A model generated the notes under the pieces. It had not been told where the DNA came from. It searched no databases and worked only from the letters and a program-made list of their open reading frames with translations. Source: an uncultured Candidatus Saccharibacteria bacterium (GTDB lineage Bacteria; Patescibacteriota; 4484-211; JAGQKX01). Taken from it: 64,000 bases of DNA. Positions 3,595-56,581 of the stretch are shown here, piece by piece. Positions within the stretch are counted from its first letter, which is position 1. Each line of letters opens with the position of its first letter. Both the position numbers and the translations under genes were made by a program. The stretch is from NCBI GenBank assembly GCA_964392315.1, contig CAYMOT010000001.1, forward strand, positions 202,403-266,402, in the 5' to 3' direction.

Positions 3595-3645
3595 ATCTGG
3601 TGATTGTAGTATGGCGACTGGTACTACACAAGCCAGACAAATGTT

Positions 3646-4041: not shown

Positions 4042-4112
4042 CCGTGCACATTTAAACCGTCTTTTACGTATTTCTCATTTGCATATTTGTACATTTAGAC
4101 TACAATCCAGCC

Positions 4113-5942: not shown

Positions 5943-6947
5943 ATGACAATATTAGCAATCGAAACGAGTTGTGACGAAACTGCAGCCGCTCTTGTTAAAG
6001 ACGGTATACATGTTATACGCCAAGCGCTCGCGTCAAGCGCAAAAAAACACCAACTGACTGGTGGCATCGTCCCTGAGGTTGGTGCTCGTCAGCAAGTGCT
6101 CGATATCATTCCCATTCTTCAAGAAACGCTTGCAGATACTTCACCAAACGACCTAGACGCAGTGGCCGTCACCGTAGGTCCAGGTCTGATTGGCTCTCTA
6201 GTGGTAGGGGTTGAAACAGCAAAGGCACTTGCGTGGGCATGGAACAAACCGCTTATTCCCATTGATCACGTCATTGCCCATGCGTATGCACCCTGGATTC
6301 AGGGGACACAACCGACACTTCCCGCACTTTGTCTGATAATTTCGGGAGGGCACACTGAATTTCTCTTCCTAAAAACCCACCGTGACATTGAGTTTTTGGG
6401 TGGCACACGTGATGATGCAGTGGGGGAGGCGTTTGACAAAGTCGCACGTCTTCTGGGCTTACCCTATCCTGGAGGACCAGCAATTGAAACACTTGCCCAT
6501 GCCGGAGATCCTAATGCAATAGATCTTCCCAGACCAATGATAGCCAATGATTCACTCGAGATGTCTTTTTCTGGCTTAAAAACCGCGGTTCGCAATGTGC
6601 TGCCGACATCATCAACCAAGGCAAATATTGCAGCATCATTCCAGCAGGCAGTCATTGACGTTTTGTGCACCAAAACGGCCAAAGCCATTACCAAACACAA
6701 GCCACGCTCACTTATTGTTGCTGGAGGGGTTGCCGCAAATCGCACACTCGCCGAGCAGGTACACAAAGAATTTAGCCAAAAAACCGATGTATATGTCGCC
6801 CCAATTTCATATTCCGTGGATAATGCCGCGGTTATTGGCAGCTGTGCATTTTTTAACTATCAGCCATCACTGGATGTATGTACTGTTGTTGCGGATCCAA
6901 GCTATCATGCAAAACACGTAGGCACCAGTAGATCGCTCTCTTTATAG
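5943..6947 (+). CDS. tsaD: tRNA N6-adenosine threonylcarbamoyltransferase TsaD (Kae1/Gcp family).
   Basis: MTILAIETSCDETAAAL N-terminus, the metal-binding HVIAHAYA motif, and SGGVAAN. Confidence 0.9.
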   Translation: MTILAIETSCDETAAALVKDGIHVIRQALASSAKKHQLTGGIVPEVGARQQVLDIIPILQETLADTSPNDLDAVAVTVGPGLIGSLVVGVETAKALAWAWNKPLIPIDHVIAHAYAPWIQGTQPTLPALCLIISGGHTEFLFLKTHRDIEFLGGTRDDAVGEAFDKVARLLGLPYPGGPAIETLAHAGDPNAIDLPRPMIANDSLEMSFSGLKTAVRNVLPTSSTKANIAASFQQAVIDVLCTKTAKAITKHKPRSLIVAGGVAANRTLAEQVHKEFSQKTDVYVAPISYSVDNAAVIGSCAFFNYQPSLDVCTVVADPSYHAKHVGTSRSLSL

Positions 6948-6949
6948 GT

Positions 6950-18009: not shown

Positions 18010-18633
18010 CTAATCTTCCGTCATGTATTGCTTAATTGCAACGGCTACTATCGCAACAAAGAATCCGACAAAAAGTCCAACCAGTGTATAGAGGAGAATA
18101 GGTGGTTTTTGCAAGATTACGAGCGGTTCGGTATTCACTCGTTTTACGGTTACATTACCGAAATCATGTTCCGCACTGAGCACTTGTTCTTCAACTGCCG
18201 AGAACAACCCCTGCACCACCTCAATGGCGTACACACTATCTGTCGCACGAACCGAAAGATCAACGAGTTGCGGTGCTATCTTTTCTACAGAGGTCTGCTT
18301 GTTAAGTTCTCGAATCTGTGAAATTGCGGAGTCTCTCTCGGTAAGTTCTAGTGCTCTATATGCCACTGTGCTGCTCTCAAAAAGACCCACCACCGTATCG
18401 GTAAATGCTTCTGCCGCCTGTTGGGCATAATATCCATCATAGGTGAAATCACCACTTGTAGGTTGCTCGGGGATTTTTTGCACGTAAATCGTGAGCAGTG
18501 CCTCAAATTTATCTGGTATGCGTTGGCTTACCCCTAACGCTACAGCTCCCCCCAAGACGGTCAAGCCCACCAGGACAACGATATTCTTTTGTAAAACGCG
18601 TAGATACTCTCGAAGTTCCATATTCTTAAACAC
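18010..18633 (-). CDS. Wzz/CpsC-like polysaccharide chain-length determinant (small form).
   Basis: Bitopic topology: N-terminal transmembrane helix (VVLVGLTVLGGAVALGV), an extracytoplasmic helical region, and a C-terminal transmembrane helix (LLYTLVGLFVGFFVAIVAVAI). This matches the YwqC/Wzz family. Confidence 0.5.
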   Translation of the reverse strand: MFKNMELREYLRVLQKNIVVLVGLTVLGGAVALGVSQRIPDKFEALLTIYVQKIPEQPTSGDFTYDGYYAQQAAEAFTDTVVGLFESSTVAYRALELTERDSAISQIRELNKQTSVEKIAPQLVDLSVRATDSVYAIEVVQGLFSAVEEQVLSAEHDFGNVTVKRVNTEPLVILQKPPILLYTLVGLFVGFFVAIVAVAIKQYMTED

Positions 18634-19042
18634 GCATGTGCATATCTAAAGCTTCATTCACTAAACGATCCGCAAGCGCATTTTTTGCACGCGGTATATG
18701 CTTGAATTCTAGCATAGGAGCTTGTACCCTTAAAGCAGATATTGCTTCATATTCTTTTTGGAGAGTGCTGTTCTTAACTCTATAGGCGCCTGCCAACTGT
18801 TTAACCACAAGCTCTGAATCCAAATAACATGTTATCTTCGTAGGACTATATGACAACGCACTAGTAAGTGCAGCCTTCAACGCCATGTATTCCGCCTCGT
18901 TATTTGTTTTACGTTCACCTATGAACGCAGCGTGAGTTTCCAAGGGGGTAGCAAGGTTATCTGCAGAATAAATTACAAAGCCTATTGCAGCCGGACCCGG
19001 ATTGCCACGCGCGCCTCCATCACTATAGGTAAGTATATGCAT
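18626..19042 (-). CDS. rnhA: Ribonuclease HI. Likely start is ATG at 19042; the track extends to 19081.
   Basis: MHILTYSDGGARGNPGPAAIGFVIY is the RNase H N-terminal DxG catalytic region. ...NNEAEYMALKAAL and the C-terminal RAKNALAD are also consistent. Confidence 0.8.
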   Translation of the reverse strand: MHILTYSDGGARGNPGPAAIGFVIYSADNLATPLETHAAFIGERKTNNEAEYMALKAALTSALSYSPTKITCYLDSELVVKQLAGAYRVKNSTLQKEYEAISALRVQAPMLEFKHIPRAKNALADRLVNEALDMHMRV

Positions 19043-19077
19043 AATAAATATTCCTACTACGAGTGTACACGGTAAAA

Positions 19078-20337
19078 TCAATCAGTGCTGGAGGGTAGTA
19101 CGGAAGCTCGTGATGTGTCATGTGCCGCTATTGCACATATGGTGAACCCTACAACAAGCCACACCATACCATTTCCTATAGAAAGGCTCCACCAGTAATG
19201 ATCAAATAGGCTCGTAACACTTATGACAATCCAGATGCCAATAATAAATACCTTCGACATGGAACGAGGCGTGTTCCAGATATCCCTCATCAAGAGCAGC
19301 CATCCACCGAGAAACCATATCCCCGCAACAATGCCTATTTCACTCATGACAAGAAGGGGGACATTGTGCACCGGCTGTAGAAGCAGTCTCTGTTCTGCGG
19401 TTCGGTAGGCCTTGAGCGCAACACTAAAATTACCATTACCGACACCGGTAAGCGGGTGCGTGTTTATGATTTGGATGCTCCTTTGTAGCAACTCTCTGCG
19501 CTCCGTAACAGAAGGGTCATTCGTTGAGAGCGTGAGTATATACGGAATAATTATGAGCAAGCTGAGTACAATACCCCCCAGGAATATTCGTGAGAAAGGA
19601 ATCGTCTTTCGTAATAATACAGCACACCAAAGCCCTGCAATAAAAACACCCAGCCATACAGACCGGGAAAAACTTATGATGACCAAAAGCCAAGATATTC
19701 CAAAACCAAGAAGTACACTACCGTTCTTACCCTTAAGGTATCGCCATGCAAACAGTAGTAGCCACACTGCCGCTACGCCCCCAAGTACATTTGGATGGGG
19801 GAACACAGCATACGGGCGCAAAAAAGTTTTTCCCAAAAAGGTGGCACGTGCAATTGCGGGAGTCACTACTGAGTAATCCCAATTCCCAAGGATCCAAACC
19901 CCTAGAGAGTGTCCAAACAAAACCTCAAATACCGCCAGTACTCCAACCGTGAAGCATCCCACAACCCATGCATACCACCACGTTGTGGTTATTTTGTGCG
20001 TTGTACTATACCAACCTACACACAGGGCAAAGAATGCATATACCGCGAGATTCACCGATCGAACTGTTGCAAGCAAGGGATCGAGTGCCATGACGACAGA
20101 GAGAAAAGAAAATGCAATAAGCCCCAGAATCCACCATAACTTCCACCCTAAACTCTTAACCCAAACGGCAAATTCTTGTCGGTGGTGGAGCAAAACTGCC
20201 ACACAAAACGCAACGACAACGATATCTCGTATATACAAAAAAAACATTTCATAATCGTTGGCATAGAACCGGCGACCCAACGGGATACGTGTTTGTAGAA
20301 AAAACACAAACGGAAGGAGAAAGAATAATTTTCTCAC
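19078..20337 (-). CDS. O-antigen ligase/polymerase (Wzy_C)-like polytopic membrane protein.
   Basis: About twelve transmembrane helices with a larger extracytoplasmic loop near the C-terminal third. Same operon as the Wzz-like and epimerase-DUF4012 genes. Confidence 0.55.
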   Translation of the reverse strand: MRKLFFLLPFVFFLQTRIPLGRRFYANDYEMFFLYIRDIVVVAFCVAVLLHHRQEFAVWVKSLGWKLWWILGLIAFSFLSVVMALDPLLATVRSVNLAVYAFFALCVGWYSTTHKITTTWWYAWVVGCFTVGVLAVFEVLFGHSLGVWILGNWDYSVVTPAIARATFLGKTFLRPYAVFPHPNVLGGVAAVWLLLFAWRYLKGKNGSVLLGFGISWLLVIISFSRSVWLGVFIAGLWCAVLLRKTIPFSRIFLGGIVLSLLIIIPYILTLSTNDPSVTERRELLQRSIQIINTHPLTGVGNGNFSVALKAYRTAEQRLLLQPVHNVPLLVMSEIGIVAGIWFLGGWLLLMRDIWNTPRSMSKVFIIGIWIVISVTSLFDHYWWSLSIGNGMVWLVVGFTICAIAAHDTSRASVLPSSTD

Positions 20338-20804
20338 ACAGGTTTTACCACAACCTTACGCTGATACCCGGACCCAGAAGACTCACTCTCCACTCCCTCT
20401 ATATCCTGAAGTGCAAGGTGTACAATCCTACGATCAGCAGCACTCATCGGACTAAGCGCGATTGGCTCTTTAAGGTACAATACTTTTTCCGCGACACGTT
20501 GCGCAAGCGCTACAAGCTGCTCTTCCCGTCGCTGTCTATATCCATCAATGTCAACCATTACTGGTACCCATTCATCCCGGTTCTTATTTACAATCATGCC
20601 AAGAATCAACTGCAATGACCGCAGTGTCTCGCCATGATATCCGATCAACACGCCACGCTCTTCCTCATCATGTGCATCGTATTTTAGGTTTACCTGCACC
20701 ACGGCAGATTCATCCACCTCTACTACGATTTCTGGAGAGAACCCCAATTTATTTAGAAGCTCTTGGGTTAAATGTTGGATTTCTGTGATCGTTTGCGGAT
20801 CCAT
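20334..20804 (-). CDS. jag: Jag/SpoIIIJ-associated RNA-binding protein (KH + R3H domains).
   Basis: C-terminal R3H-like [40 protein letters not shown]. Conserved position directly downstream of yidC. Overlaps the yidC 3' end by 37 nt. Confidence 0.75.
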   Translation of the reverse strand: [156 protein letters not shown]

Positions 20805-21454
20805 ATCTGCTGCATTATAGCAAAAACTGCGCTTGCTACAAAGTAAATGCCCAAACCACTTGGAGATTGCAACGTGATAACCCCAAGCATTATCGGAAAT
20901 ATTAGTAACATATTCTTTTGCATCGACTGTGCCATATCCTCAGCACCTTTTTGATCTTCCTGAGCCTGAGTACTGGAAGACGAAGAAGCCGCGGGCATCG
21001 TATAGCGGGTCAATAACCACTGGGTAATAACAACCACAACTGGTAATATAAAAAGCCTATCTGGTTCTGCAAGATTCAACCACAAAAAGCGCGCGTCTGT
21101 TACCTGGCCTTTTAACGTAGAGTTAAACACTTGATACAGGGCAATAATAATTGGCAACGACAACAGCATCGTTAAAATTCCTCCAATTGGATTGACTCCA
21201 TGCTGCTTATATAACTCCATTTGTGCAAGTGCCAATGCTTGGGCATCCTTTCCGTGTTTCTTTTTTAACTTATCAAGTTCAGGCTTTAATTCTCGCATCT
21301 TTTCAGACGACTTTAACGAGGGCAAGCGTAAGGGAGTTAAAACGAGCTGGATGATGAAAGTGAGCAAAATAATTGCTACACCAAGACTTCCGGTGATGTC
21401 AGAAAGATATAACAACGACTTCGTGAGCGGTTCTATGAATAATGTATTCCACAT
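20768..21454 (-). CDS. yidC: Membrane protein insertase YidC/Oxa1 (short, Gram-positive-type).
   Basis: Five-transmembrane core with LGIYFVASAVFAIMQQIWIRK, the conserved C-terminal YidC motif. Confidence 0.85.
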   Translation of the reverse strand: MWNTLFIEPLTKSLLYLSDITGSLGVAIILLTFIIQLVLTPLRLPSLKSSEKMRELKPELDKLKKKHGKDAQALALAQMELYKQHGVNPIGGILTMLLSLPIIIALYQVFNSTLKGQVTDARFLWLNLAEPDRLFILPVVVVITQWLLTRYTMPAASSSSSTQAQEDQKGAEDMAQSMQKNMLLIFPIMLGVITLQSPSGLGIYFVASAVFAIMQQIWIRKRSQKSNI

Positions 21455-21495: not shown

Positions 21496-21855
21496 TTATT
21501 CGTCTTGCATTCTAGCATATTCTACAAGTTTAGCTTTCTCTAATGCATTGGTAAGTACCGAAGTGACGTCAGTCGTTTGTTTTTGCAATAGATTTACCCG
21601 TGCAATAAGAACGATATCAAAACCACGTGCCACATTCGGCAATACTTCTCGTACCGCTTCTCTTAATACTCGTACTGCGCGATGTCGCTGTACCGCTCCA
21701 CCAACTTTGGCAGATGCAATAAAGCCAAACCGCAGCGAGTTCGCACTATTTGGCATATAGGTCAACACAAAGTACGGTGTATGTACGGTGGCTCCTTGTT
21801 TCTTTAGTTTTCTAAATATGTACTCATCGTGCAGGCGGTACTGTTTGGGAAGCAT
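21496..21855 (-). CDS. rnpA: Ribonuclease P protein component. The track start at 22014 over-extends into rpmH; ATG at 21855.
   Basis: LRFGFIASAKVGGAVQRHRAVRVLREAVRE is the RnpA RNR-motif region. Canonical rpmH-rnpA-yidC-jag order. Confidence 0.85.
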   Translation of the reverse strand: MLPKQYRLHDEYIFRKLKKQGATVHTPYFVLTYMPNSANSLRFGFIASAKVGGAVQRHRAVRVLREAVREVLPNVARGFDIVLIARVNLLQKQTTDVTSVLTNALEKAKLVEYARMQDE

Positions 21856-21961: not shown

Positions 21962-22114
21962 TTACGAACGTACGGAGACACTGAGCTGCTTTCGCCCTTT
22001 GTTCCTCCGCGCACTAAGAACTCGACGTCCTGCTGCAGAACGCATTCTTTTCAAAAATCCGTGTACTCGTAGTTTTCGTCTATTCTTTTTTCGAGCAAGG
22101 GTTCGTGCTGGCAT
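21962..22114 (-). CDS. rpmH: Ribosomal protein L34 (50 aa). Not in the supplied ORF track.
   Basis: My hand translation of the minus strand gives MPARTLARKKNRRKLRVHGFLKRMRSAAGRRVLSARRNKGRKQLSVSVRS. It has the L34 hallmark (RxHGFxxRM...GRxVLxxRRxKGRKxL). ATG at 22114-22112, TAA at 21964-21962. Confidence 0.8.
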   Translation of the reverse strand: MPARTLARKKNRRKLRVHGFLKRMRSAAGRRVLSARRNKGRKQLSVSVRS

Positions 22115-22174
22115 AACTGCGGCTAAGGATACCAAATTTTTTCATCAACCGCAACTGAAATAGTCTCTACTTTC

Positions 22175-23593
22175 TCAAGCATATAACTCCTTTCTAAAAG
22201 TCGTTACCGTCGATTGCAGTGCTTTGTCGCCTTGATCTATACGACTTCTTACTTGTTCAAATCCATGCATGATGGTTGTGTGATCTCGGCCTCCCAGGAG
22301 GCGTCCGATGTCTACATAACTCATCCCTAGCTCGTCTCTGAGCATGAACATGGCTACTTGCCGAGGGACCACTATTTCCTTTTTGCGCCGTTTACCACAG
22401 AGATCCTTCATCGTAACGCTATATGTATCCATGACCATTCCCAAAATGAGTTCCGGTGAAAGGCGCTTGCGAGACTCCTTTTCTCTTTGCTCAATTTGTC
22501 GCTCTCCCAAAAGGCTCTGCACCAGTTGCAAGTCAACTTCGTGGATATCACGCGCAACAAGTTCAGACTTTATTTTGAGCAATGTTCCTTCTATTTCACG
22601 AATATTGTTTTGAATAAGCTCAGCCATCATTTCAATGGCACGAGATGACATACTCATCCCAAGTTCTTGCGCCTTTGATTGAATAATAGCAAAGCGTGTC
22701 TCATAGTCCGGCTGATTTATATCCACCATAAGGCCGCCTTTAAATCGTGAGGACAGGCGCTCAGCCAGGTTTGCAATGTCATCGGGAAGCGTATCCGAAG
22801 CAAGAATAATCTGCTTTCCGCTTTGATATAAGTGATTAAAGGTATGATAGAACTCCTCTTGAATCCCTTCTTTTCCCCCTAAAAACTGAACATCATCAAC
22901 AAGTATACAATCAGCACTTCGGTATCGATTTCGAAACTCCATCATCTTTTTCTTTTGCACGAGGAATTCAACAAAATCATTCAAGAATCGCTCGCTCGTA
23001 AAATAAATCACCCGCATGTCAGGGTATTTCTCACGCAACCCATTCCCGATCGAATGCATGAGATGGGTTTTTCCAACGCCTGTTCCGCCATATATAAAAA
23101 GTGGATTATATGAGAGGCCGGGATTTTCTATAACCGCTTGTGCTGCTGCATACGCAACTCTATTGCTCGAGCCTACAACATACCGCTCGAGCGTGTATTG
23201 CGTGTTGAGTCGCTCGAGATTGAACGATTGGGAAATTCTTTCATTTAGAGATACTCCCTGTGTAGGAGTAAACGAGGCAACATTCCCTTGTCCAAACAAA
23301 GGTGCCTCTTCTGTCGTATTTACTTTTGGTGGAAGAATATCCCAATTGATACCAATAGTTCGTTTCGTAAGATGAAATAGTATTTGTTTCAGCAACTCTT
23401 CGCTATTCTTTTTTAGAAAATCTCGTGTGTATGTATGCTTACAACCAACAGTTAGGACGTCGTCTTCAATAGAAAGCCCTTCGGTATGTGCAAGCCATGC
23501 TTTTGTTGGGGCAGACTCTGTACGAACATCTACCTCATCTATAACTGCTTTCCACAATGATTTGGGATCAAGCATAGTGTTCATAATGTACAA
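22175..23593 (-). CDS. dnaA: Chromosomal replication initiator DnaA.
   Basis: AAA+ Walker A (GGTGVGKTHLMHSIGN), Walker B (ILVDDVQFL), sensor motifs, and the C-terminal domain IV DNA-binding helix (VVPRQVAMFMLRDELGMSYVDIGRLLGGRDHTTIMHG). Confidence 0.92.
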   Translation of the reverse strand: MYIMNTMLDPKSLWKAVIDEVDVRTESAPTKAWLAHTEGLSIEDDVLTVGCKHTYTRDFLKKNSEELLKQILFHLTKRTIGINWDILPPKVNTTEEAPLFGQGNVASFTPTQGVSLNERISQSFNLERLNTQYTLERYVVGSSNRVAYAAAQAVIENPGLSYNPLFIYGGTGVGKTHLMHSIGNGLREKYPDMRVIYFTSERFLNDFVEFLVQKKKMMEFRNRYRSADCILVDDVQFLGGKEGIQEEFYHTFNHLYQSGKQIILASDTLPDDIANLAERLSSRFKGGLMVDINQPDYETRFAIIQSKAQELGMSMSSRAIEMMAELIQNNIREIEGTLLKIKSELVARDIHEVDLQLVQSLLGERQIEQREKESRKRLSPELILGMVMDTYSVTMKDLCGKRRKKEIVVPRQVAMFMLRDELGMSYVDIGRLLGGRDHTTIMHGFEQVRSRIDQGDKALQSTVTTFRKELYA

Positions 23594-23918
23594 AGCACCT
23601 GCATAACTGTCAACGAATGATTCCTTTGTTCACAACAGCATTCACGTATTAGTGGATAACTTTACCTAGCATGTGTACAACTTATCGTAACGAGAACGTT
23701 AATGTGTATAACTTTTTATTAAATGTGTACTTATTAGTTGTACACATAGTTATGCTCTTTTTATTCTCAAGGAAAGGGGTACTACAAAGCCAAAAATTCC
23801 GCTTATTAACAAATAAACATCACTACTATGTACTGCTACTATTTCATAAAGAAGAGAAAGTAGATAATGTTGTATTCAGAAAATTATGAGTGGTTGTCTG
23901 AGGTGATTTATCTCCCAG
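23594..23918. promoter_or_regulatory. Putative replication origin (oriC): an AT-rich unwinding region with several DnaA-box-like 9-mers between the divergent dnaA and dnaN genes.
   Basis: 8/9 matches to TTATCCACA or its complement at 23650-23658 (aGTGGATAA) and 23703-23711 (TGTGtATAA). Weaker 7/9 matches near 23617, 23738 and 23862. The 23700-23900 stretch is strongly AT-rich. Confidence 0.55.
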
Positions 23919-25094
23919 ATGTTTCCAAAAGATGGTACACTTCATGTCATGAAGTTCATTACGCAGCAACAAAAACTTGAGCAGTTTATTGCATTAGCAC
24001 ATAAAGTAGCACCCTCCAGAACGACCTTACCCATATTGTCAAATGTATATATTGGAAGTGACAATGGGCGGTTAAAGATTGCAAGCACCAATCTGGAGGT
24101 ATCGTTTGCTGCGTGGCTCGGCGCGAGTATAGAGGAGGAAGGAGAAGTTACTGTATCTACAAATTTGCTCCATAATTATATACAAAATCTTGCACCAGAG
24201 AAGTTGACTTTGGCAACACAAGGAACAACGTTCCGTGTTATTGGTTCAACGACTGCTGCTGAATTTTTAACGATGCCCGCTCAAGAATTCCCTGAATTTC
24301 CGAGTGTACGAAGTTCGGTACTTCTTCGTCTTTCTCCGGGTCGATTACAGGAAATATTAAAAAAGGTCCTTTTTGCAGCAGCAACCTCAGATGCCCGGCC
24401 TGTCCTAACGGGTGTTTTGTTTCGGGGAACGCCAGAAGGGGTCATTATTGTAGCAACGGATGGATTTCGGCTTGCAGAAGTGACTGTCGATTGGAAAACA
24501 CTCTCTGCCGAGGCTCCTGAGGAGGCGTTTGAAATGATTATTCCCGCACGGATGCTTAAAGACATTGGCCAGTTTTCTGCAGATGCATCTTCTGACGGTT
24601 TGTGGGATGTGCGCCTTACCGAGGACAATAATCAAGTGGTATTTTCCTCTCCTGACGTGCAATTATTTGCTCGACGGATAGAAGCAGAATTTCCCCAGTA
24701 CGAAAATATCATTCCAAAAGAGCATAGTGTAACCATGACTGTTGAAAAGGAAGCGCTTATTCGCGCAATACGAACTGCTGCGCTTTTTGCACAATCCCAA
24801 AGCCATACCGTGCAACTGCAGATGAATACCGCAGACCAGACGGTTCGTGTTTTTGCAGAGAGTAAGGAATTGGGTAAGCAGGAGTCGACACTTCCAGTAA
24901 GCATGTCTGGTGAAACGATAACTGCGGGATTTAATGCAACATATCTTATTGATGCAGTATCAGCGTTTGATGGGGAGCAAATCGTCTTGCAGATGAAGAC
25001 GCCAGAAGCACCAGCGCTCTTTGTATCTCCTGGCGTAGATACACATATTCGGCAGGTTGTGATGCCTGTTCGCCTCGAACGCTCTACCTCATGA
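23919..25094 (+). CDS. dnaN: DNA polymerase III beta sliding clamp. An alternative ATG at 23949 gives the canonical MKF... N-terminus.
   Basis: Three-domain beta-clamp pattern. N-terminus MKFITQQQKLEQFIALAHKVAPSRTTLPILSNVYI. The C-terminal MPVRL motif is typical of DnaN. Confidence 0.88.
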   Translation: MFPKDGTLHVMKFITQQQKLEQFIALAHKVAPSRTTLPILSNVYIGSDNGRLKIASTNLEVSFAAWLGASIEEEGEVTVSTNLLHNYIQNLAPEKLTLATQGTTFRVIGSTTAAEFLTMPAQEFPEFPSVRSSVLLRLSPGRLQEILKKVLFAAATSDARPVLTGVLFRGTPEGVIIVATDGFRLAEVTVDWKTLSAEAPEEAFEMIIPARMLKDIGQFSADASSDGLWDVRLTEDNNQVVFSSPDVQLFARRIEAEFPQYENIIPKEHSVTMTVEKEALIRAIRTAALFAQSQSHTVQLQMNTADQTVRVFAESKELGKQESTLPVSMSGETITAGFNATYLIDAVSAFDGEQIVLQMKTPEAPALFVSPGVDTHIRQVVMPVRLERSTS

Positions 25095-26674
25095 AGCGCT
25101 TTGTTATAGCAGCAGTTCTAATAATAGGAAGTATTTTAGTTAGCATGAAGGTTGGCGAATTTCGTGAAGTTTTTAGTCAGGGCGCTGTCCGCTTTACCAT
25201 TCATGATGCCCAGACATCTTTGGCACTGTATATAGATAACCAATTTGCTGGAACCTTACCACTTGGTGAGCAAACCTTGTCACCCGGTGTTCATACTTTT
25301 GCTTTGCGAAACGTAAAAGGCGATGAACAGCGCGTTTGGTGGCAAGGGGAACTGGAAGTTAATAAAAATGACGCGCTGGTAATGACGTTGTTTCCGGACA
25401 GTAGCAAAAAGAAATTACAGGGAGTTGTTTTGACACGGTTTTTCTCGAAGAATAGTGACCAGTCTCGCTCTGTCGTTTTTTCATCTGACGGAGCGGATAT
25501 ATATATTAATTCGCAAAAATATACCGAATCACCTATTCTTGTTGAACCATCCCAACACGAAGAAATTACGATACGTACGGAGCACGCGCTATTACCGAAT
25601 ATACAGTATTCATTTGATACGCAGGAGAATACTTTCTTTGCTACGCATATATATCTTCTCTATGATTACCTCAGTAATATAACAGTGCAGGATCTTGTCG
25701 TCGATACAACGCCAGCAGATAATCTAAAGATATTTCGTCGGTGGGAATGGCAACAGGAAGAACAACCACTCCATGTGGACAACTTAAAAGAGAGTGCCTG
25801 GGATCGTCTACAGGTATACAGCCTAATTGTTCCAGAATTTACTTCTCCACAAAAGACCCTTCGCACATTAGAGGAATACTTCGGACAAGTAGCATCTACT
25901 CCTCGAATACCATTCTGTTTTACGGTGGATCCTGCTGGTGATATATGGGAAGGTTTCGGGGTATGGAATTACGATTTTTCAGCATTAGAACCTCTGGATG
26001 GACAGGCTGGCGCTTGCCCAGTTCTTGTCCTCTTAACAGAACAGTCTCAGCAGTTGCCACTACCTGCACTTGAAAATATAGCATGGTTTGTAGGTAGACA
26101 GGCCCCATTATCTGCCGAAATACTCACTTCTCTACAGCAAATAACGCTAACTAATCAAGAACGGACAACGGTTGAAGTAGAAGTACTCAATAGTGGATGG
26201 AGGACGTGGCATACCCAGGAAGGGACAGGCCTTACTGTCAAGACAGCTCCAACAGGACAGTCTGATCTTGTAGATACCGATAATTGGATAGATATGTCAA
26301 CCGTGACACGGAGCACTGATCCGGTAGTGATCCCGGGAGGGCGGACGGTATTACAGATGCCAATACGAGGGTCAATATACCCCATTACTTATACAGAAGA
26401 ACTGTCATTATTTCTCGATAATGAACAGATACCATCGTCAGTTATACGGATTCCCGTTCAAGTACAAGGTATAGGGGAAGCTGTACAAGTGCAAAATACA
26501 CAGACGGGCTTTCTGAATGTTTACGAAACACCATCCAAGGACAGTACGCTATTAATTAGCATTTATCCCAATGAACGATACGCACGGTTAGAGCAACAGG
26601 ATAACTGGTCAAAGATTAGACTTCAAGATGGGCGTGATGGGTGGGTCGAGTCGTCTGCTCTTGTTTCTTTATGA
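25091..26674 (+). CDS. Membrane-anchored or secreted protein with a PEGA-like N-terminal domain and a C-terminal bacterial SH3-like domain. Function unknown.
   Basis: N-terminal transmembrane or signal segment (FVIAAVLIIGSILVSM). PEGA-like VRFTIHDAQTSLALYIDNQFAGTLP...PGVHTFALRN. C-terminal SH3b-like WSKIRLQDGRDGWVESSALV. It overlaps the dnaN stop and the recF start by 4 nt each. Confidence 0.5.
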   Translation: MKRFVIAAVLIIGSILVSMKVGEFREVFSQGAVRFTIHDAQTSLALYIDNQFAGTLPLGEQTLSPGVHTFALRNVKGDEQRVWWQGELEVNKNDALVMTLFPDSSKKKLQGVVLTRFFSKNSDQSRSVVFSSDGADIYINSQKYTESPILVEPSQHEEITIRTEHALLPNIQYSFDTQENTFFATHIYLLYDYLSNITVQDLVVDTTPADNLKIFRRWEWQQEEQPLHVDNLKESAWDRLQVYSLIVPEFTSPQKTLRTLEEYFGQVASTPRIPFCFTVDPAGDIWEGFGVWNYDFSALEPLDGQAGACPVLVLLTEQSQQLPLPALENIAWFVGRQAPLSAEILTSLQQITLTNQERTTVEVEVLNSGWRTWHTQEGTGLTVKTAPTGQSDLVDTDNWIDMSTVTRSTDPVVIPGGRTVLQMPIRGSIYPITYTEELSLFLDNEQIPSSVIRIPVQVQGIGEAVQVQNTQTGFLNVYETPSKDSTLLISIYPNERYARLEQQDNWSKIRLQDGRDGWVESSALVSL

Positions 26675-27762
26675 TCACCAAGATCTCCTTAGAGAGCTTT
26701 AGAAATTTCACTAATTTTTCTGCTGAGTTAGGGCACACTACAGTGGCGCTTGGCCAAAACGCGGTAGGGAAAAGCACTATACTAGAAGCGATTGCGTTGT
26801 TTGGAGGATATCGATTTACCCGGTCGTTATCTGAACTTATTCAATGGGGGAAGCCTTTTGCACGTACAGATCTTGTAATACGTGATAGGGCATATTCTAG
26901 TATGCGCGTTGTCGTACGTCTACGAAACTTGTCTATTGTCGGAGATGATCAACTCATAAGCGTGAATGAAGGAGCAGCTTGTCTACCTATTGTCTACTTC
27001 TCGCCACGAACCGTAACTTTGCTGGAAGATTCGCCGTCATTGCGGAGACGTTTTTTTGATCATGTTTTGTCTACCATATCTCCTGAGTATCGGCATGCGC
27101 TTCGTGTATATCAGCACACGTTGCGGCAACGAAATGCGTCACTAAAACAATCAAGAGCGTCTCAGCATATGGTGTGGGAGGCAGCGCTCGCAGAGCATGG
27201 ATCGTATGTGCAGATTATGAGAAATTGGCTCGCACGAACGTTGAGCCAACAGTTAGAGTTTAATGGTGAACTTGTGTACCACATGAGCCCACAGAGTGGC
27301 CAGCCACTTTTGCCCCAGAGTGGTGATTGGGTAGATAATATTAAAACGCACAGGCAAAAACTACAAGAATTTTTAATTACTAAGTGGTCCGTGTTGCGGG
27401 AACGGGAAATGCACGTTGGATTTACACTGATGGGTGCACAACGTGATGACTGGTGGGTAACTACCGTAGAAGAGGAACGACAGATTAACCTGGGAACTTT
27501 TGGTTCTCGAGGCCAGCAACGTATGGCAATCGTCGCGCTTCAATTTGCGGTGCTTCGACTGTTAGAAGATCTGTTGGAGTATAGACCAATATGGTTATTG
27601 GACGATGTTTTTTCGGAACTAGATACGTTTCATCAAGAAAAAGTTATTGAGCGACTATCGCAGTATCAGACGGTTATCACGTCAGCGCATGAAGAATATC
27701 CGGGGATACACGCAGTTCGAGAGTTATCTGATGTACATACAATCAGGCTTGGAGATCATTGA
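26671..27762 (+). CDS. recF: DNA replication and repair protein RecF. ATG at 26671; the track starts at a GTG at 26641.
   Basis: MITKISLESFRNF N-terminus, Walker A (LGQNAVGKSTILEAI), SMC-like signature (LGTFGSRGQQRMAIVAL), and Walker B (IWLLDDVFSELD). Confidence 0.88.
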   Translation: MITKISLESFRNFTNFSAELGHTTVALGQNAVGKSTILEAIALFGGYRFTRSLSELIQWGKPFARTDLVIRDRAYSSMRVVVRLRNLSIVGDDQLISVNEGAACLPIVYFSPRTVTLLEDSPSLRRRFFDHVLSTISPEYRHALRVYQHTLRQRNASLKQSRASQHMVWEAALAEHGSYVQIMRNWLARTLSQQLEFNGELVYHMSPQSGQPLLPQSGDWVDNIKTHRQKLQEFLITKWSVLREREMHVGFTLMGAQRDDWWVTTVEEERQINLGTFGSRGQQRMAIVALQFAVLRLLEDLLEYRPIWLLDDVFSELDTFHQEKVIERLSQYQTVITSAHEEYPGIHAVRELSDVHTIRLGDH

Positions 27763-29975
27763 TTCGGTGGATCGTTGAGTGGTTGGTCTAGGTCAGGTAT
27801 GTCGCTTGATGCCATCGTATCACTGAGCATATCTGCAGTTAACCCATCAGATGGGCCTTCAGATGGAGCTTGTGCCTCAGCGGTTTCTGACGCCGGAGCG
27901 ATTGGCGCGTCTACAGGTTGGTTCTTGCTTGCTGCGGCAGGCGAAGGTTCAAAAGTTTCTCCTTCAGGGGTAACAGGAACAGTTGCAGGTTCATTTGATG
28001 TGTCCGTTTCTTCTGGCGACTCTGGTACTGTTGTCGCAAAAGTAAACTCTTCATCGTCACCAACTTCCTGTTGCGATATATTCAAGCGTTCGAGTTCTTT
28101 TTGTTGTTTCTCCAACTCCATGGCTTCGAGTTCAGCGGGGTTTGTCGTTACCAGTTGATGTTCATCCTGTGATGCGATTACCTGCATTGCAACATGCGCT
28201 TCTCCGGCAAAAAACAATCCTTCACCAACATTTGCAGATAATAGAAGACCTCGTTCGCCTTCGGACAAGAAAAAGAGCTCAGTTAATTGGTTAATCGCTG
28301 TGGGTGATTGCTTAAATAACACTTGAATAGATGCATTGGTTACAACTGCTTTTCCTTTATCAACGCTCAAAAAGTCTTCAACATCTTGTGTGATAGTAGA
28401 TAGGCCAAGATAATACTTTCTTCCTCTTTTTGCGATACTATGCAAAAAGTTTGCACTATCCGGGTGCTTCATCATAAACCACGCTTCGTCCACGATGAGA
28501 ATCCTCTTTCTGCGATCTCTACGCACGCGCGTCCAAATATAGTCCAGTACCATGAACATACCAAGTGGACGAACACTCTCTTCGAGATCACGTATTCCAA
28601 ACACGGTGAATGTATTATGAATATCGATATTTGTATGACTATCAAAAAGGCCTTTTGCTGAACCTAACACATACGGTTGCAAACGATCGGCAAGCAATTT
28701 TGCTTCAGGGTCTTCCATGCCGAGAAGTGTTTTGTACATGTCTTCAAGAAGCGGCGGTTCCAATTTCTGAGTGTCTGGATCCTGTGTAATTCCTTTTAAC
28801 CGGTATGTCTCGAGGAATGCTCGATCCATGACCGCTTCTTCGCTTGGATTTAACTCGCCCATCATGACTTTGAGCATTGAGTGCAAGGTGAGTACTTTAA
28901 GGCCAAGTTCGTCCTCACCTTCTTCGTACACTTGTGATAGGTCAAATGGGTTAATTTTACTGTCGGAATTAAAATCAAGCGCAATGAACTCTCCGCCGAT
29001 AGACTCAGCCATAGTCCGATACTCATTTTCAGGGTCGATGATAATAATTTCAGTACCGAGCATGAGGGAGCGGAGTGCTTCAAGTTTTACAAAGAAGCTT
29101 TTTCCTGCACCAGATTTAGCAAAAACTACCATATTCGCGTTTGCCAAACTGAACCGGTCGAAAATTATTAAACTGGCATTGTGTTCATTAATTCCGTACA
29201 AAATCCCCGTATCTGATGTGAGACTAGAAGAAGTAAACGGAAAGGTTGTTGCAATAGAGGTTGTATCCATGTTTCGGTACACTTGAACAATATCTTGGAA
29301 GAGCGGTAGGGTAGATCTGAAGCCATCTTCCATTTGAAGGGTAGTTTTACGCGCAACAAGGAGTACCGAACCAAGCACGGATTCTAATTGTTTAGAGATA
29401 AGGTCGAGTTCTTCAAGCGATTCTGCAGGTAGTGTGATATAGAGCGCAAATTGGAAAAATCGTTCACGTTCTGCGACCAACTCTTCTTGCAACGCACGTG
29501 AATCTTGTAAGGCGAGTTGTACGCCAGGATCAAGAATGCGTCCTTGTTGTGCTTCAATATTTAACTCAGTCTCCATTTCGGTAATCTTTCTACGCAAGTT
29601 TTTAAGCACAACTTGGGCATCAACAGGATAATAATAAACCGATATATCGAGAGCGTGTGGAAAATTAATAAGCGGGGATAGCCAGTTTGCGCCTACTTCA
29701 CGAGGATATCCTGCAATGAAGAATGAGCGATAGTACGTATTACCGATCTGGAGATGGTTAAAATCATGCTCAATTCCAGAAGGGGCGATAAGGTCACGTA
29801 TGGTTAAAAGCCCTTGTGCGAATTTTTCTGCTTTCTCTCTTGCTTCTTCAAGCTCTTTTTGTGCAATAGACACCTCGGGATTTGATGCATCTCCTGATGG
29901 CGAGACACTTGTACTGGTTTTTTTACCAGGTCCGGGAAGCAACTTATTGACGAGGGCAGCGACAGGGTTTTTCAT
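27756..29975 (-). CDS. VirB4/TraC/CagE-family type IV secretion/conjugation ATPase, with a long acidic Pro/Ser-rich C-terminal tail.
   Basis: The N-terminal domain is typical of VirB4 (...YYRSFFIAGYPREVGANWLSPLI...). Walker A (VVFAKSGAGKSFFV), Walker B (RILIVDEAWFMM), and the C-terminal RecA-like region. The last ~120 aa are low-complexity (TVPVTPEGETFEPSPAAASKNQPVDAPIAPASETAEAQAPSEG...). Confidence 0.85.
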   Translation of the reverse strand: MKNPVAALVNKLLPGPGKKTSTSVSPSGDASNPEVSIAQKELEEAREKAEKFAQGLLTIRDLIAPSGIEHDFNHLQIGNTYYRSFFIAGYPREVGANWLSPLINFPHALDISVYYYPVDAQVVLKNLRRKITEMETELNIEAQQGRILDPGVQLALQDSRALQEELVAERERFFQFALYITLPAESLEELDLISKQLESVLGSVLLVARKTTLQMEDGFRSTLPLFQDIVQVYRNMDTTSIATTFPFTSSSLTSDTGILYGINEHNASLIIFDRFSLANANMVVFAKSGAGKSFFVKLEALRSLMLGTEIIIIDPENEYRTMAESIGGEFIALDFNSDSKINPFDLSQVYEEGEDELGLKVLTLHSMLKVMMGELNPSEEAVMDRAFLETYRLKGITQDPDTQKLEPPLLEDMYKTLLGMEDPEAKLLADRLQPYVLGSAKGLFDSHTNIDIHNTFTVFGIRDLEESVRPLGMFMVLDYIWTRVRRDRRKRILIVDEAWFMMKHPDSANFLHSIAKRGRKYYLGLSTITQDVEDFLSVDKGKAVVTNASIQVLFKQSPTAINQLTELFFLSEGERGLLLSANVGEGLFFAGEAHVAMQVIASQDEHQLVTTNPAELEAMELEKQQKELERLNISQQEVGDDEEFTFATTVPESPEETDTSNEPATVPVTPEGETFEPSPAAASKNQPVDAPIAPASETAEAQAPSEGPSDGLTADMLSDTMASSDIPDLDQPLNDPPNQ

Positions 29976-33742: not shown

Positions 33743-36403
33743 CTATTGATTAAGAGCACGAAAACAACCGGCCTTATCAGGATGGTCAGGGTTGCAGCAC
33801 ATTTGTAATGGGCCCGATGCAGGTTGGTACCCCCAATTTGCGAGGACTTCAACCGAACATAGGTCAATAGTGTCAGAATAAAAGTTGCCCGTCGTGCTGG
33901 CTGCAAAGTGGACATGGGGAGCGCCTGAACAGACATTATAATTACTTGGATTGCAACTGCATTCTCCGCCATTTTGTCCATTGCAAGGAGGTTTTCCCGC
34001 TACCCCTCGATTACAGCCTGGAGCTCCGGTTGTGCAATCGCATGGTTTACATGCCGAGCCACTGTGGCTATTTGTTCCTATTCGGTCTCCAGCGGTAACT
34101 GGTCCGGACGCTCTCCCTGCTTCTTCCATATGGGTTGAATAGACAGCTGGTTGGCATGAGTCTGTTGGGTATACCATTACTGCGTATCCTCCCGTACTGT
34201 CATATGGGTATGCTGTTCCGGTAATAGGCGCAAGCGCTTCGACGCCGCGTTTGGCGAATAAGTCAACTGGCCGGTAGCCATCCCAGTGAAAACGATTAAA
34301 CCCTGACTGTCCTACTGGTAGTGGGAATGATGTTGCACTAGAACAACCTATTCCAAGACCGAATGCTCCCACGGGTGGTGGTGTTCCACCACCACCGCCA
34401 TTGCAGCCACCGTTTTGTCCAAATAAGCTTTCCGTAGCCCAGAGCCCTAATAGAATAAATGGATTAATATTTCTCTCTTGTGCTTCCCTTAGGAGGGACA
34501 AGAGTTCCTGTTGGTTTGCGCTGCTCAAATAGAAGTTCATATAATGGACATTCAGGACAGTGGTAAGATGAGTTCTCAAGGCTTCTGGGTCCATTCCAAA
34601 ACTTCCGGCAGCATACCCGTTATTTTGGCCCACGAGGGGGCAATCTACGAGCGCACCACGATAAAAATTGAATGCCGGGTGGCCGGGTTCACGTACAGGG
34701 TCACCTTGTGCAGGACAGGCCATTCCAACATCTCCCGCATATCGTGGGGAATTTCTTATTTCGTCCGCTGAGGGTGGTTGTTCACAAGTCCCGCTCAACG
34801 GAGTTCTGCCACCAGTTGAGCTGGGAGGTAAGTATCTATCAAAAAAGTCCCAAAAATTATAACCAAACGGCATAATATACCCTGAACCATCAGCTCGTGC
34901 GTATGTTTCGTTGTGGCAATAGGGGCCATATGAATCAAACCAATCCCATGTTTCTCGACCTAAGTTTGCATCAATTGTATCTGCGGCACACTCAAGAGAT
35001 GTCGCAAAGTCAATCACTCCGTCTCTAAAGCAATTAAACGGATTGCACGTGCCACCTCCCGGTCCTGTTCCTGGTCCACTGCCACTTCCAGGAGGTGATT
35101 GAGGGCCGCATGCACTTGATCCCGGCGAAGTGTAATGTAGAACAGGGGGGATATCATAATAATTTTCAGTATCTCTATCGAAAACCCTGAATATTGGTTT
35201 TCCTGTCCCATCATCTTGGCCTACGTCTATATCGTTTGGAGCAACAAATCCAGCAGGTTCAAAGGGCTCACAGCTAGTACCGTCGCATGCGCAATATAAC
35301 TGCGGGGTACTGACATTTGCACAGAATGGTGTCCAAGGAGAATACACACACATATCTGCTTCTGGGGGGACTTCTTGGACTCCAAATTCTCCAATATAAA
35401 ATTCTTGAATATTCGAAAGAGCGCCAGAGTCTGCTTGGGTATTTGCGAGAAGAGCCGAAGTTTTTTCTGAATCATTATAATAGTGGGCGGATGCTACATT
35501 AAGTGAGGAGCCTTGGTTGCTGACTATAAAATCTGGTGGACTGCCAGCACCAGGACTATCACCTCTGGTCGTAGGCTGGCTTGCCATTTGTCCGATACCA
35601 ACTCGACTTACTCCTCGAGATCTTATCTCTGAAGCTACGGTTTGTGCCCAATTTGCATAGGCAGATATACACCCAACGACTCCGCCACAATGTGGCTCAT
35701 TGAGTAGTTCAATTGCGTATAATCCAGGATTTCCTGCCAGAGCTTGTGCCATTTCTCGAGCATAGTCAAGGTAAGAGCCGCTATAATTAGGCCCTCCATA
35801 GGTTTGTGTGTAACCAGTTGTATACCATGAAGTTGGATCGATTTGTGTTGATCCGGTTATTCCTAAATCTGCACATCCATTAGCATAGTCACACAAAGCG
35901 ACAATTACTCGCATTCCTTTTGATTGTGCTAAATTCACAATGGCCGTTGTAGCTGCGACTCCTCCGCGATCAGGGAATCCAAATATTCGGATCATATTAA
36001 TGCCACAATCGCTGGATAAATAATTAATAGCATCTTCGGCTGCTCCAGGAACTCGCCCATTTGCTGTTCCGATGCTAGGTATATTGACTCCTAAGAAAGA
36101 GAAGTTTCCCACATTGCTTCTTAAAACACCGCAAATCGGGTCTCCTTTAAAGAAAGAATAGAGATCACTTCCAAACGCAAATTCTTGATCTCTGCTTCCG
36201 GAATACATCCAGTATAATGCTCCATCTACTCCAGCGGCTGCTAGATCAGACAACTCCTGCTGTACCAATGCCGCACGATCTGCAGGTGTTTGCGCAGGTG
36301 TAGTAAGAGATGGTGCAAAGAATAACCCCAAAAGGATGGGTACGCTAAATACAAGAATACTGATTGCTGTCTTGGTATAAGTATTATTTTGAAGCTGAAA
36401 CAT
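33743..36403 (-). CDS. Secreted multidomain hydrolase: signal peptide, glycoside hydrolase family 5 domain, Gly/Pro-rich linkers, a Cys-rich region and a C-terminal M23/LytM-like peptidase domain.
   Basis: Signal peptide (ISILVFSVPILLGLFFAPSLTTPAQT). GH5 catalytic motifs (IELLNEPHCGG with the acid/base Glu in NEP; FYIGEFGVQ with the nucleophile Glu in GEFG). The C-terminus has RIGTNSHSGSA...GAPHVHFAAS, which resembles the M23 IGxxGxTGxSTGPHxHFE signature. Many Cys residues. Confidence 0.7.
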   Translation of the reverse strand: MFQLQNNTYTKTAISILVFSVPILLGLFFAPSLTTPAQTPADRAALVQQELSDLAAAGVDGALYWMYSGSRDQEFAFGSDLYSFFKGDPICGVLRSNVGNFSFLGVNIPSIGTANGRVPGAAEDAINYLSSDCGINMIRIFGFPDRGGVAATTAIVNLAQSKGMRVIVALCDYANGCADLGITGSTQIDPTSWYTTGYTQTYGGPNYSGSYLDYAREMAQALAGNPGLYAIELLNEPHCGGVVGCISAYANWAQTVASEIRSRGVSRVGIGQMASQPTTRGDSPGAGSPPDFIVSNQGSSLNVASAHYYNDSEKTSALLANTQADSGALSNIQEFYIGEFGVQEVPPEADMCVYSPWTPFCANVSTPQLYCACDGTSCEPFEPAGFVAPNDIDVGQDDGTGKPIFRVFDRDTENYYDIPPVLHYTSPGSSACGPQSPPGSGSGPGTGPGGGTCNPFNCFRDGVIDFATSLECAADTIDANLGRETWDWFDSYGPYCHNETYARADGSGYIMPFGYNFWDFFDRYLPPSSTGGRTPLSGTCEQPPSADEIRNSPRYAGDVGMACPAQGDPVREPGHPAFNFYRGALVDCPLVGQNNGYAAGSFGMDPEALRTHLTTVLNVHYMNFYLSSANQQELLSLLREAQERNINPFILLGLWATESLFGQNGGCNGGGGGTPPPVGAFGLGIGCSSATSFPLPVGQSGFNRFHWDGYRPVDLFAKRGVEALAPITGTAYPYDSTGGYAVMVYPTDSCQPAVYSTHMEEAGRASGPVTAGDRIGTNSHSGSACKPCDCTTGAPGCNRGVAGKPPCNGQNGGECSCNPSNYNVCSGAPHVHFAASTTGNFYSDTIDLCSVEVLANWGYQPASGPLQMCCNPDHPDKAGCFRALNQ

Positions 36404-37349
36404 AAACAGTAACGTTCTCGTTCGAGAAGGTGTACATAGGTAGTGTTACATAATCAGCTGACTCTACATTATAGAAAAAATCATTTGCTATATAATAGCC
36501 TAGATTGGAAGAGGAAAATACCGTAGTAGGCGAATAATTGCCAGCTTGTCTTATTATGTCTCGAAGACGGACTCTTTTAGTAGCATCAGCATAATCAATA
36601 ATTTCAACTTGTTCACCTTTAGACAAGTCTATAAATGGATACCACAGTGAAGCACCGACAATATCTCCGTTAGCATGTACCATTACATATTGCTCGAAGG
36701 GCACATATAATTCTGCATTTCCAATTCTTGTGAGGATTTTTATAAACAATCGAGTTTTTTCGCTTATGTATGAAGATTCAGTTACGCTTTCTCCAGTTTC
36801 AGTATATAAAGTAATGTTTTTTTCATCCCATACATAGATTGGGTTATCGAAACCTATCTTTGAAACGAATTCCTTTGCTTTATTAAACGCTTCGGGGAGG
36901 GTAATTGTCTGTGTTGCTTGCGGGTAACCTTCTAGGGGAACAGAGTAAGTTAGTATACCTCCGGTTACATTGATACTTAATGAGTTACCGTTTTCGGTAT
37001 AAACATAGCCTTCATTAGTAAGCTGTGTACTTGCTTTGGAAGTAAAGCCAATATTAGATGCAATGTTTACTATTGCAGCCTGTGAAAATAACTTTTCAGG
37101 AGCCGAATATATTGGATATACTGTCACGGTATCTGGCGTTCTTATGGGATCATCAAATTCAAACTTGACATACTCTTCCTCGGACAATGCAAGTCTAATA
37201 TTTTCACCAACCCGGATAACCGAATTGTTTGAGGAGTCTACTCGTATAAGAATCAATATCACGCCAAGTACTATAACAGCAAGGATAAGTGCAATAATTA
37301 GAATCGTAACTCTTCGATGTAGCTGAAAATAATTTCGTATGGAGTTCAT
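36384..37349 (-). CDS. Bitopic membrane protein (N-terminal transmembrane helix plus a ~280 aa extracytoplasmic domain); possible VirB8-like component.
   Basis: Transmembrane helix (VTILIIALILAVIVLGVILILI). Soluble domain of the right size and topology for a VirB8/ConB analogue. Overlaps the upstream gene by 20 nt. Confidence 0.4.
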   Translation of the reverse strand: MNSIRNYFQLHRRVTILIIALILAVIVLGVILILIRVDSSNNSVIRVGENIRLALSEEEYVKFEFDDPIRTPDTVTVYPIYSAPEKLFSQAAIVNIASNIGFTSKASTQLTNEGYVYTENGNSLSINVTGGILTYSVPLEGYPQATQTITLPEAFNKAKEFVSKIGFDNPIYVWDEKNITLYTETGESVTESSYISEKTRLFIKILTRIGNAELYVPFEQYVMVHANGDIVGASLWYPFIDLSKGEQVEIIDYADATKRVRLRDIIRQAGNYSPTTVFSSSNLGYYIANDFFYNVESADYVTLPMYTFSNENVTVYVSASK

Positions 37350-37351
37350 AG

Positions 37352-39640: not shown

Positions 39641-39646
39641 AGGGCA

Positions 39647-56575: not shown

Positions 56576-56581
56576 AACTCT

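Follow-up and report, generated by a model that had tools for sequence, protein, structure and literature searches.

When dnaA faces away from dnaN, does the origin of replication still lie between the two genes, and how did such an order come about? These questions are raised by a locus within a 64,000-nucleotide stretch of the metagenomic contig CAYMOT010000001.1 (the whole stretch analysed is called the window below). The canonical orientation was not found there: dnaA occupies the same strand as the downstream rpmH, which starts 60 bp past the dnaA stop codon, and is divergent from dnaN. The reading that we favour is that the spacer between dnaA and dnaN (approximately 23585-23948) is very probably the chromosomal origin of a WWE3 bacterium, and that dnaA was flipped together with its promoter in one ancient inversion. 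The DNA and predicted protein sequences give good support both for placing the origin here and for the inversion. Pfam searches placed jag, yidC, rnpA, rpmH, dnaA, dnaN and recF in a single cluster within 7.5 kb, made up as follows.

20334..20804, minus strand: jag/khpB, with KH and R3H domains (Pfam R3H 3.9e-16, KH_KhpA-B 2.5e-9)
20768..21454, minus strand: yidC, a short form of 228 amino acids (60KD_IMP 8.2e-48)
21496..21855, minus strand: rnpA, RNase P protein (Ribonuclease_P 1.4e-22; a 119-amino-acid gene in public contigs)
21962..22114, minus strand: rpmH, ribosomal protein L34 (Ribosomal_L34 7.5e-14; found by tblastn in relatives)
22175..23584, minus strand: dnaA, with AAA+ and C-terminal helix-turn-helix domains (Bac_DnaA 1.5e-63, Bac_DnaA_C 4e-23)
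23919/23949..25094, plus strand: dnaN, sliding clamp (DNA_pol3_beta N-terminal, central and C-terminal domains)
25091..26674, plus strand: a 527-amino-acid protein with a C-terminal SH3_3 domain (SH3_3 5.4e-10)
26671..27762, plus strand: recF (SMC_N 4.7e-12, AAA_15; a 363-amino-acid gene in public contigs)

The gene identities and strands given in an earlier first-pass annotation of this DNA, with dnaA-rpmH-rnpA-yidC-jag on the minus strand and dnaN-recF on the plus strand, were thereby confirmed. The gene wedged between dnaN and recF, which overlaps each of them by 4 bp, had been described there as a PEGA/SH3 gene; its SH3_3 domain was found, whereas PEGA was not detected with Pfam. The true start of dnaA is probably the ATG at 23575 (MLDPK...), which matches the protein starts of the relatives (alignment A1), and for dnaN the start at 23949 is the probable one, being favoured by relatives and by a promoter-like element over the upstream ATG of the open reading frame (ORF) at 23919.

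Close relatives were found by exact-protein look-ups in NCBI, JGI and Logan assemblies. An identical DnaA was present on 24 contigs from independent sequencing runs, and in the four of these loci that were read, which included strains 97-98% identical in DNA, the layout was unchanged. The flip was also common to five independent relatives with DnaA identities of 79-61%. Two of them, L085 (79%) and L086 (61%), had the order recF<SH3<dnaN< >dnaA>rpmH>rnpA>yidC>jag>Wzy>RNaseH; L172 (74%, WWE3 GCA_020429845.1) could be read as recF<SH3<dnaN< >dnaA; the P0006 contig (69%) as dnaA>127-aa ORF>rpmH>rnpA>yidC>jag>Wzy; and L167 (67%, WWE3 GCA_020429905.1) as dnaA>rpmH>rnpA, with seven small genes upstream in place of dnaN. 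Beyond these relatives, DnaA identity fell to approximately 50% and below. As the closest named DnaA matches (67% and 74%) both come from genomes designated 'candidate division WWE3 bacterium' (GCA_020429905.1 and GCA_020429845.1), the organism is assigned by its DnaA relatives to candidate division WWE3 (Patescibacteria). The seven small genes of L167 (436-3993) are co-directional and end in a strong terminator-like hairpin; scans of them gave no Pfam or PHROGs match and no tRNA.

The spacer between dnaA and dnaN

The spacer had previously been described as AT-rich and 325 bp long, which was borne out: it measures 325 bp from ORF to ORF, or 364-373 bp with the refined start codons, and has a GC content of 33% compared to approximately 43% for the window. 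DnaA boxes were scored by their mismatches to TTATCCACA, and sites with up to two mismatches were counted. Eight such sites were present in 364 bp, compared to 1.84 +/- 1.33 in dinucleotide-preserving shuffles of the spacer, none of which (0/1000) reached eight. The scan also showed the spacer to be the densest box cluster of the 64-kb window, with as many as 10 sites in a 364-bp stretch, where the mean was 1.4 and the runner-up had 6. The same enrichment was seen in the spacers of all four relatives (0/1000 shuffles reached the observed count at up to two mismatches). Both of the box-like 9-mers quoted in the first-pass annotation exist, AGTGGATAA at 23651-23659 and TGTGTATAA at 23703-23711, but the first had been placed one base off, at 23650. 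From the dnaA end towards dnaN the elements recognised were as follows.

23585..23613, minus strand: dnaA promoter-like TTGACA-N17-TACATT, from a promoter scan, conserved in L085, L086, L167 and L172
23598-23606: weak box TTATGCAGG between the hexamers of the dnaA promoter
23626..23746, both strands: DnaA-box array, from the enrichment over shuffles and from box columns conserved in alignments A2 and A3
23626-23634, plus strand: box TTGTTCACA
23651-23659, minus strand: box TTATCCACT
23672-23680, minus strand: box TTGTACACA
23703-23711, minus strand: box TTATACACA
23724-23732, minus strand: degenerate box AAGTACACA
23738-23746, plus strand: box TTGTACACA in the opposite orientation
23803..23819, plus strand: box pair, TTATTAACA (2 mismatches) with the overlapping AAATAAACA (4 mismatches)
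23823..23844, minus strand: DnaA-trio-like run 5'-AAA TAG TAG CAG TAC a TAG TAG-3', seen as CTA repeats on the plus strand
23845..23900, dnaN side of the trio run: proposed unwinding region, 72-76% AT
23933..23941, plus strand: dnaN extended -10-like TGgTACACT, 7 nt before the ATG at 23949

The four minus-oriented boxes (23651, 23672, 23703 and 23724) are spaced by 21, 31 and 21 bp, and the array is judged to be helically phased; in L085, L167 and L172 the corresponding four-box array consists of perfect TTATCCACA boxes at 21/30-31 bp spacing. An alignment of the spacers upstream of dnaA from the window, L085, L086 and L167 (alignment A2), with the L172 spacer read separately, gave the same succession of common blocks in every case: TTGACA-N17-TACATT, four boxes at 21/31 bp, a box pair and a TAG run.

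Composition pointed to the same place. The cumulative G-C curve of the window had its minimum at 23845, within the spacer, with a mean skew of -0.068 to the left of this point and +0.059 to the right. Blocks of minus-strand genes had skews of -0.094 and -0.127 on the left arm and of +0.077 and +0.104 on the right arm, and blocks of plus-strand genes went from -0.03 and -0.01 in the left arm to +0.076 and +0.110 in the right arm. GC skew tracks the chromosome arm, not the coding strand. The skew minimum, the densest box cluster and the conserved origin modules therefore agree, over this 64-kb window, with the first-pass proposal that the origin lies in the spacer. A second candidate at approximately 56.5 kb (56340-56640), where the next-densest cluster of weak boxes occurs with a TAG-rich 18-mer, was considered and rejected because it lies in apparent coding sequence and contains only two-mismatch sites; it was judged to have arisen by chance.

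In the basal unwinding system (BUS) a box pair is followed by 3'-GAT-5' (5'-TAG-3') repeats and then by AT-rich DNA (PMC8287927, PMC6669920), an order that can be recognised in weaker form in the window. The published rule calls for a box with no more than two mismatches lying 0-16 bp from at least three in-register NAN trinucleotides, preferably 3'-GAT-5', beside the unwinding site (PMC8287927). The run in the window consists of five in-register NAN trios, a 1-nt slip and two perfect TAG trios beside the box pair, and its sequence TAGTAGCAGTAC fell within the top 5 of 127,978 window positions by a four-trio score. A six-trio TAG score did not rank this site high, because of the 1-nt register slip, and was replaced by the four-trio score together with homology to L167 and L172. 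The box pair is homologous to TGTGGATTA/AGTGGATTC in L167 and to TGTGGATTT in L172, and the TAG runs of these two relatives (TAGAAGCAGTAGTAATAG and TAGAAGAAGAAGTAGTAG, respectively) were the top-scoring trinucleotide runs in their own loci. Both sites agree with the BUS rule and are a good match to the published pattern. L167 has six NAN trios at 4 bp from TGTGGATTA (TAG AAG CAG TAG TAA TAG-agtg-TGTGGATTA-GTGGATTCC), and in L172 six trios lie 3 bp from TGTGGATTT (AT-rich-TAG AAG AAG AAG TAG TAG-tgt-TGTGGATTT), where the counterpart of the unwinding stretch, next to the trios, is strongly AT-rich (TATATATATTTAAAATTTTTAAA). As the window element is the homologue of these two, we regard the DnaA-trio module as present in the window. 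A Bacillus locus (L027) reads TTATCCACA-tATCCACA-GGAC-CTACTAGTACTTCTACGA-AT-rich-dnaN and agrees with the window in the order of box, box, CTA run, AT-rich stretch and dnaN.

The two promoter-like elements lie close to the genes that they would serve. The dnaA -10 hexamer (23585-23590) ends 9 nt before the ATG at 23575, which suggests a leaderless dnaA transcript, and the dnaN -10-like element takes the conserved form TGnTACACTTC in the window, L085, L086 and L172. No Shine-Dalgarno sequence was visible before the likely start codon of either gene, and the close -10/start pattern was kept at both genes in L085, L086 and L172; dnaA and dnaN may both use leaderless, or nearly leaderless, mRNAs. 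A 72-amino-acid ORF (23671-23889, plus strand) spans both the boxes and the trios. The annotation of this organism's public contigs (L081-L084) lists it as a gene, that of L085 and L086 does not; it has no Pfam match and probably represents a false call within the origin.

Probable history of the inversion and competing explanations

To place the layout, loci outside the flipped group were compared. A GTDB scan with an alignment of WWE3 DnaA proteins gave, among the matches listed, only proteins of 40% identity or less, which were used as the canonical background; a metagenome scan with a single DnaA protein returned nothing above 43% identity. The background comprised 160 other loci among the matches listed, from GTDB genomes and metagenomes, and included Chloroflexi, Firmicutes and other Patescibacteria such as Doudnabacteria and Berkelbacteria. 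Where dnaN could be detected it was downstream of dnaA and co-directional with it in 85 of 87 loci, and rpmH was upstream and divergent in every locus in which it was detectable (55/55). The nearest outgroups were also canonical: in L087 (43% identity) an SH3-like gene comes after dnaA>dnaN, and L088 and L089 (42%) have jag<yidC<rnpA<rpmH< >dnaA>dnaN. The canonical state of both the nearest outgroups and the background indicates that the flip is derived, old and fixed in a WWE3 subclade. The synteny comparison thus upholds the earlier suggestion that dnaA is inverted relative to the ancestral order. The first-pass annotation had added that an arrangement common to all related genomes would be lineage-typical rather than a rearrangement, and this holds in part: all of the close relatives found, down to 61% identity, share the layout, which is consequently lineage-typical, an old fixed inversion that is not confined to this genome.

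Wherever the dnaN-recF interval of the flipped clade could be read (the window, L085, L086 and L172), it held an SH3_3-domain gene of approximately 530 amino acids. In outgroup L087 the gene after dnaN (3533-4783) is weakly similar to it (21% identity). The SH3_3 gene was absent from the dnaN-recF interval of the other Patescibacteria loci L008, L011, L028 and L033.

Alignment A3 showed that the plus-strand spacer of the window is collinear with the dnaA-to-dnaN spacers of L087, L088 and L089, the common order being TGTGGATAA-oriented boxes (at approximately 20/31-bp spacing), forward boxes, a box pair, CTACTA-type trios and dnaN. This collinearity indicates that, with respect to dnaN, the origin neither moved nor turned, and that dnaA and its promoter alone were inverted. 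The dnaA promoters of the outgroups (TTGACA-G-TTATCCACA... in L087) resemble the promoter-like element at the dnaA end of the window spacer. On the proposed scheme, a single ancient inversion would have taken dnaA with this promoter, with one breakpoint between the rpmH start and the dnaA promoter and the other between the dnaA stop codon and the box array, and would have left the origin in its ancestral place and orientation relative to dnaN before being fixed in the WWE3 subclade.

A history of several events, in which the rpmH-jag or dnaN-recF block moved or a new origin module was formed in front of dnaA, seems unlikely to us. Related lineages have certainly been rearranged near the origin. 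In two metagenome contigs (L096 and L097, DnaA 35%) the order is dnaN<jag<yidC<rnpA<rpmH< >dnaA, dnaN having moved to the far end of the rpmH block; L088 has an insertion between dnaA and dnaN that was put at 1.4 kb, or at approximately 1.1 kb (6369-7540) by comparison with its close relative L089, and that lies between the dnaA stop codon and the origin boxes and carries an ORF with a terminator-like hairpin; and L167 has no dnaN upstream. In the window, however, the rpmH-jag and dnaN-recF blocks retain their canonical divergent orientation to each other and dnaA alone differs, the box array and trio module stand to dnaN in the order and orientation seen in the outgroups, and dnaA took along its TTGACA promoter and the box inside it, all of which one inversion accounts for.

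Is the spacer an origin at all? It might be only a divergent promoter region autoregulated by DnaA, with the true origin elsewhere, as in bacteria where oriC is apart from dnaA. Several observations weigh on that side and against the origin assignment made here. The skew was read over 64 kb only, so that a deeper minimum could exist elsewhere in the genome. The AT-rich element beside the trios is weak in the window, and the AT maximum of the spacer (84-88%, 23698-23735) is inside the box array, away from the trios. The trio-proximal box is degenerate, with four mismatches, and the 1-nt break in the register of the trio run means that the BUS rule does not apply cleanly: TTATTAACA lies 11 bp from two TAG trios, and five NAN trios are reached only after the slip, 18 bp off. 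In both respects the window differs from the published system. Finally, the L167 origin module has no adjacent dnaN, and linkage to dnaN is accordingly not universal in the clade. Set against these points are the change in skew sign and the cumulative minimum inside the spacer, both independent of gene strand, the collinearity of the box/trio/AT-rich module with canonical outgroup and Bacillus dnaA-dnaN origins, and the lack of a second comparable box cluster within the window. We consider it quite improbable that the origin lies elsewhere. That the layout is a recent strain-specific rearrangement, or an artefact of assembly or binning, is hardly credible even though the source is a metagenome-assembled genome of an uncultivated lineage and the layout was first presented as a rearrangement, since it recurs on the 24 contigs of independent runs, in strains of 97-98% identity, and, in assemblies from NCBI, JGI and Logan, in five relatives whose DnaA identity goes as low as 61%.

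Predicted function and comparison with known origins

If the spacer is the origin, its elements would follow one another towards dnaN as dnaA promoter, phased boxes, box pair with TAG/CTA run, moderately AT-rich stretch and dnaN promoter. From the box pair, box-bound DnaA would spread along the trio strand and separate the AT-rich DNA beside it, in the manner of the Bacillus BUS. Lying over or next to both divergent promoters, the same DnaA would also regulate dnaA and dnaN. Initiation at the spacer by trio-based unwinding is what we infer from these elements. As a result of the flip, the autoregulatory promoter of dnaA would abut the origin boxes, giving one box-bearing region in place of two; dnaN would no longer be co-transcribed with dnaA and would have its own promoter; and transcription of dnaA would lead away from the origin, in the direction of the leftward fork, where in the canonical order it leads towards the origin. 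This agreement in direction with the leftward fork is a possible selective reason for the flip. A more doubtful suggestion is that the flip created a self-contained cassette which is the conserved unit of the clade, in which the box array, held in a single spacer of approximately 350 bp, doubles as operator for two apparently leaderless divergent promoters, dnaA now runs with the leftward fork and the origin has become tied to the 5' end of dnaA. In L167 the order origin-dnaA-rpmH persists although dnaN is missing. On this suggestion, if the flip was fixed by selection against dnaA transcription running head-on through an origin that is firing, or for a closer tie between autoregulation and origin occupancy, the clade would be a natural experiment on the conservation of dnaA-oriC-dnaN.

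Compared with the canonical rnpA-rpmH-dnaA-dnaN-recF origin, the locus has the same succession of box array, box pair, CTA/TAG run and (moderately) AT-rich DNA directly upstream of dnaN, the same rpmH-rnpA-yidC-jag block on one side and dnaN-recF on the other, and a DnaA box in the dnaA promoter (reviewed in PMC4285127). It differs in that dnaA is inverted and transcribed away from the origin into rpmH, which precludes dnaA-dnaN co-transcription, in having one intergenic box region rather than two flanking dnaA, and in having an SH3-domain gene between dnaN and recF.

The closest studied case is that of Deinococcus radiodurans, in which we take DR_0001 and DR_0002 to be divergent and in which, to our knowledge, no rpmH lies downstream of dnaA. 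It belongs to another phylum and its origin, oriCI, has 13 near-consensus boxes over approximately 500 bp. This origin is described as situated between dnaN (DR_0001) and dnaA (DR_0002), on the upstream side of the latter, and as binding DnaA in vitro (bioRxiv 10.1101/2020.03.25.007906), so that there too dnaN is not downstream of dnaA. Borrelia burgdorferi resembles the window in having a small origin between dnaA and dnaN and a non-canonical neighbour, the divergent gyrB, on the other side of dnaA, but was rejected as a precedent because its dnaA and dnaN are co-directional (PMC9879097). Literature searches returned no paper on a dnaA-dnaN pair that diverges from an origin lying between the two genes, and none on origins from WWE3 or the candidate phyla radiation.

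The flipped subclade shows that dnaA orientation and dnaA-dnaN co-transcription are dispensable, points to the box/trio/AT-rich module upstream of dnaN as the conserved core, and extends the evidence for that module to Patescibacteria. Its significance is modest, as it reveals no new mechanism and is a lineage-wide variant of a well-known layout. There is also a practical consequence, in that origin finders and gene callers need care here: the 72-amino-acid ORF is annotated across the origin in public assemblies.

On the left of the spacer, nine minus-strand genes follow one another from dnaA to an epimerase/DUF4012 gene (23584 to 14817, 8.8 kb), either overlapping or at most 106 bp apart, in an order common to the relatives. 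The first-pass annotation had proposed one very long operon starting at dnaA, and a single long minus-strand operon is no more than possible. A scan found no terminator-like site at the gene junctions of the nine-gene run, including dnaA-rpmH, but the promoter scan found a promoter-like GTGACA-17-TACAAT (21959-21931, minus strand) in front of rnpA. The 60-bp gap between dnaA and rpmH contains no box at one mismatch or less. Within the run, an RNase H/RVT_3 gene (18626-19081, minus strand) overlaps both of its neighbours, which are Wzy-type O-antigen ligase-like and Wzz-like; this order is kept in L085, L086 and the P0006 contig, and RNase H is an odd partner for envelope polysaccharide genes.

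The DnaA protein itself is unusual at its N-terminus. The first 125 amino acids (23201-23575, minus strand) gave only a weak match to DciA (E=0.033) and did not match Pfam DnaA_N even at E<=10, and there was no precomputed DnaA_N match in the clade DnaA proteins P0001-P0010. Outgroup L087 matches DnaA_N at 2e-8 and outgroup L088 has no match. Domain I seems to be strongly diverged in this lineage.

To the right, approximately 26 kb straight after recF (27756-53844) is all on the minus strand, head-on to a fork from the proposed origin, and most of this block has the positive skew of the right arm. One part of it, 33743-44047, has a slightly negative skew (-0.025, compared to +0.08 and +0.10 for its neighbours) and very long ORFs of 886, 762 and 1466 amino acids, and could be a later inversion or acquisition. 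The block opens with a VirB4/TraG-type ATPase gene (27756-29975), which adjoins recF also in L085, L086 and L172. This position fits the reported tendency of type IV secretion genes to sit near dnaA/dnaN in Patescibacteria (PMC12102498). Further to the right are smpB (58506-58952), directly followed by a transfer-messenger RNA gene (59037-59447; tag peptide GNIKNAIAQAFDNVAAAFMTPALA), and a tRNA-Ser(CGA) gene at 61882-61972.

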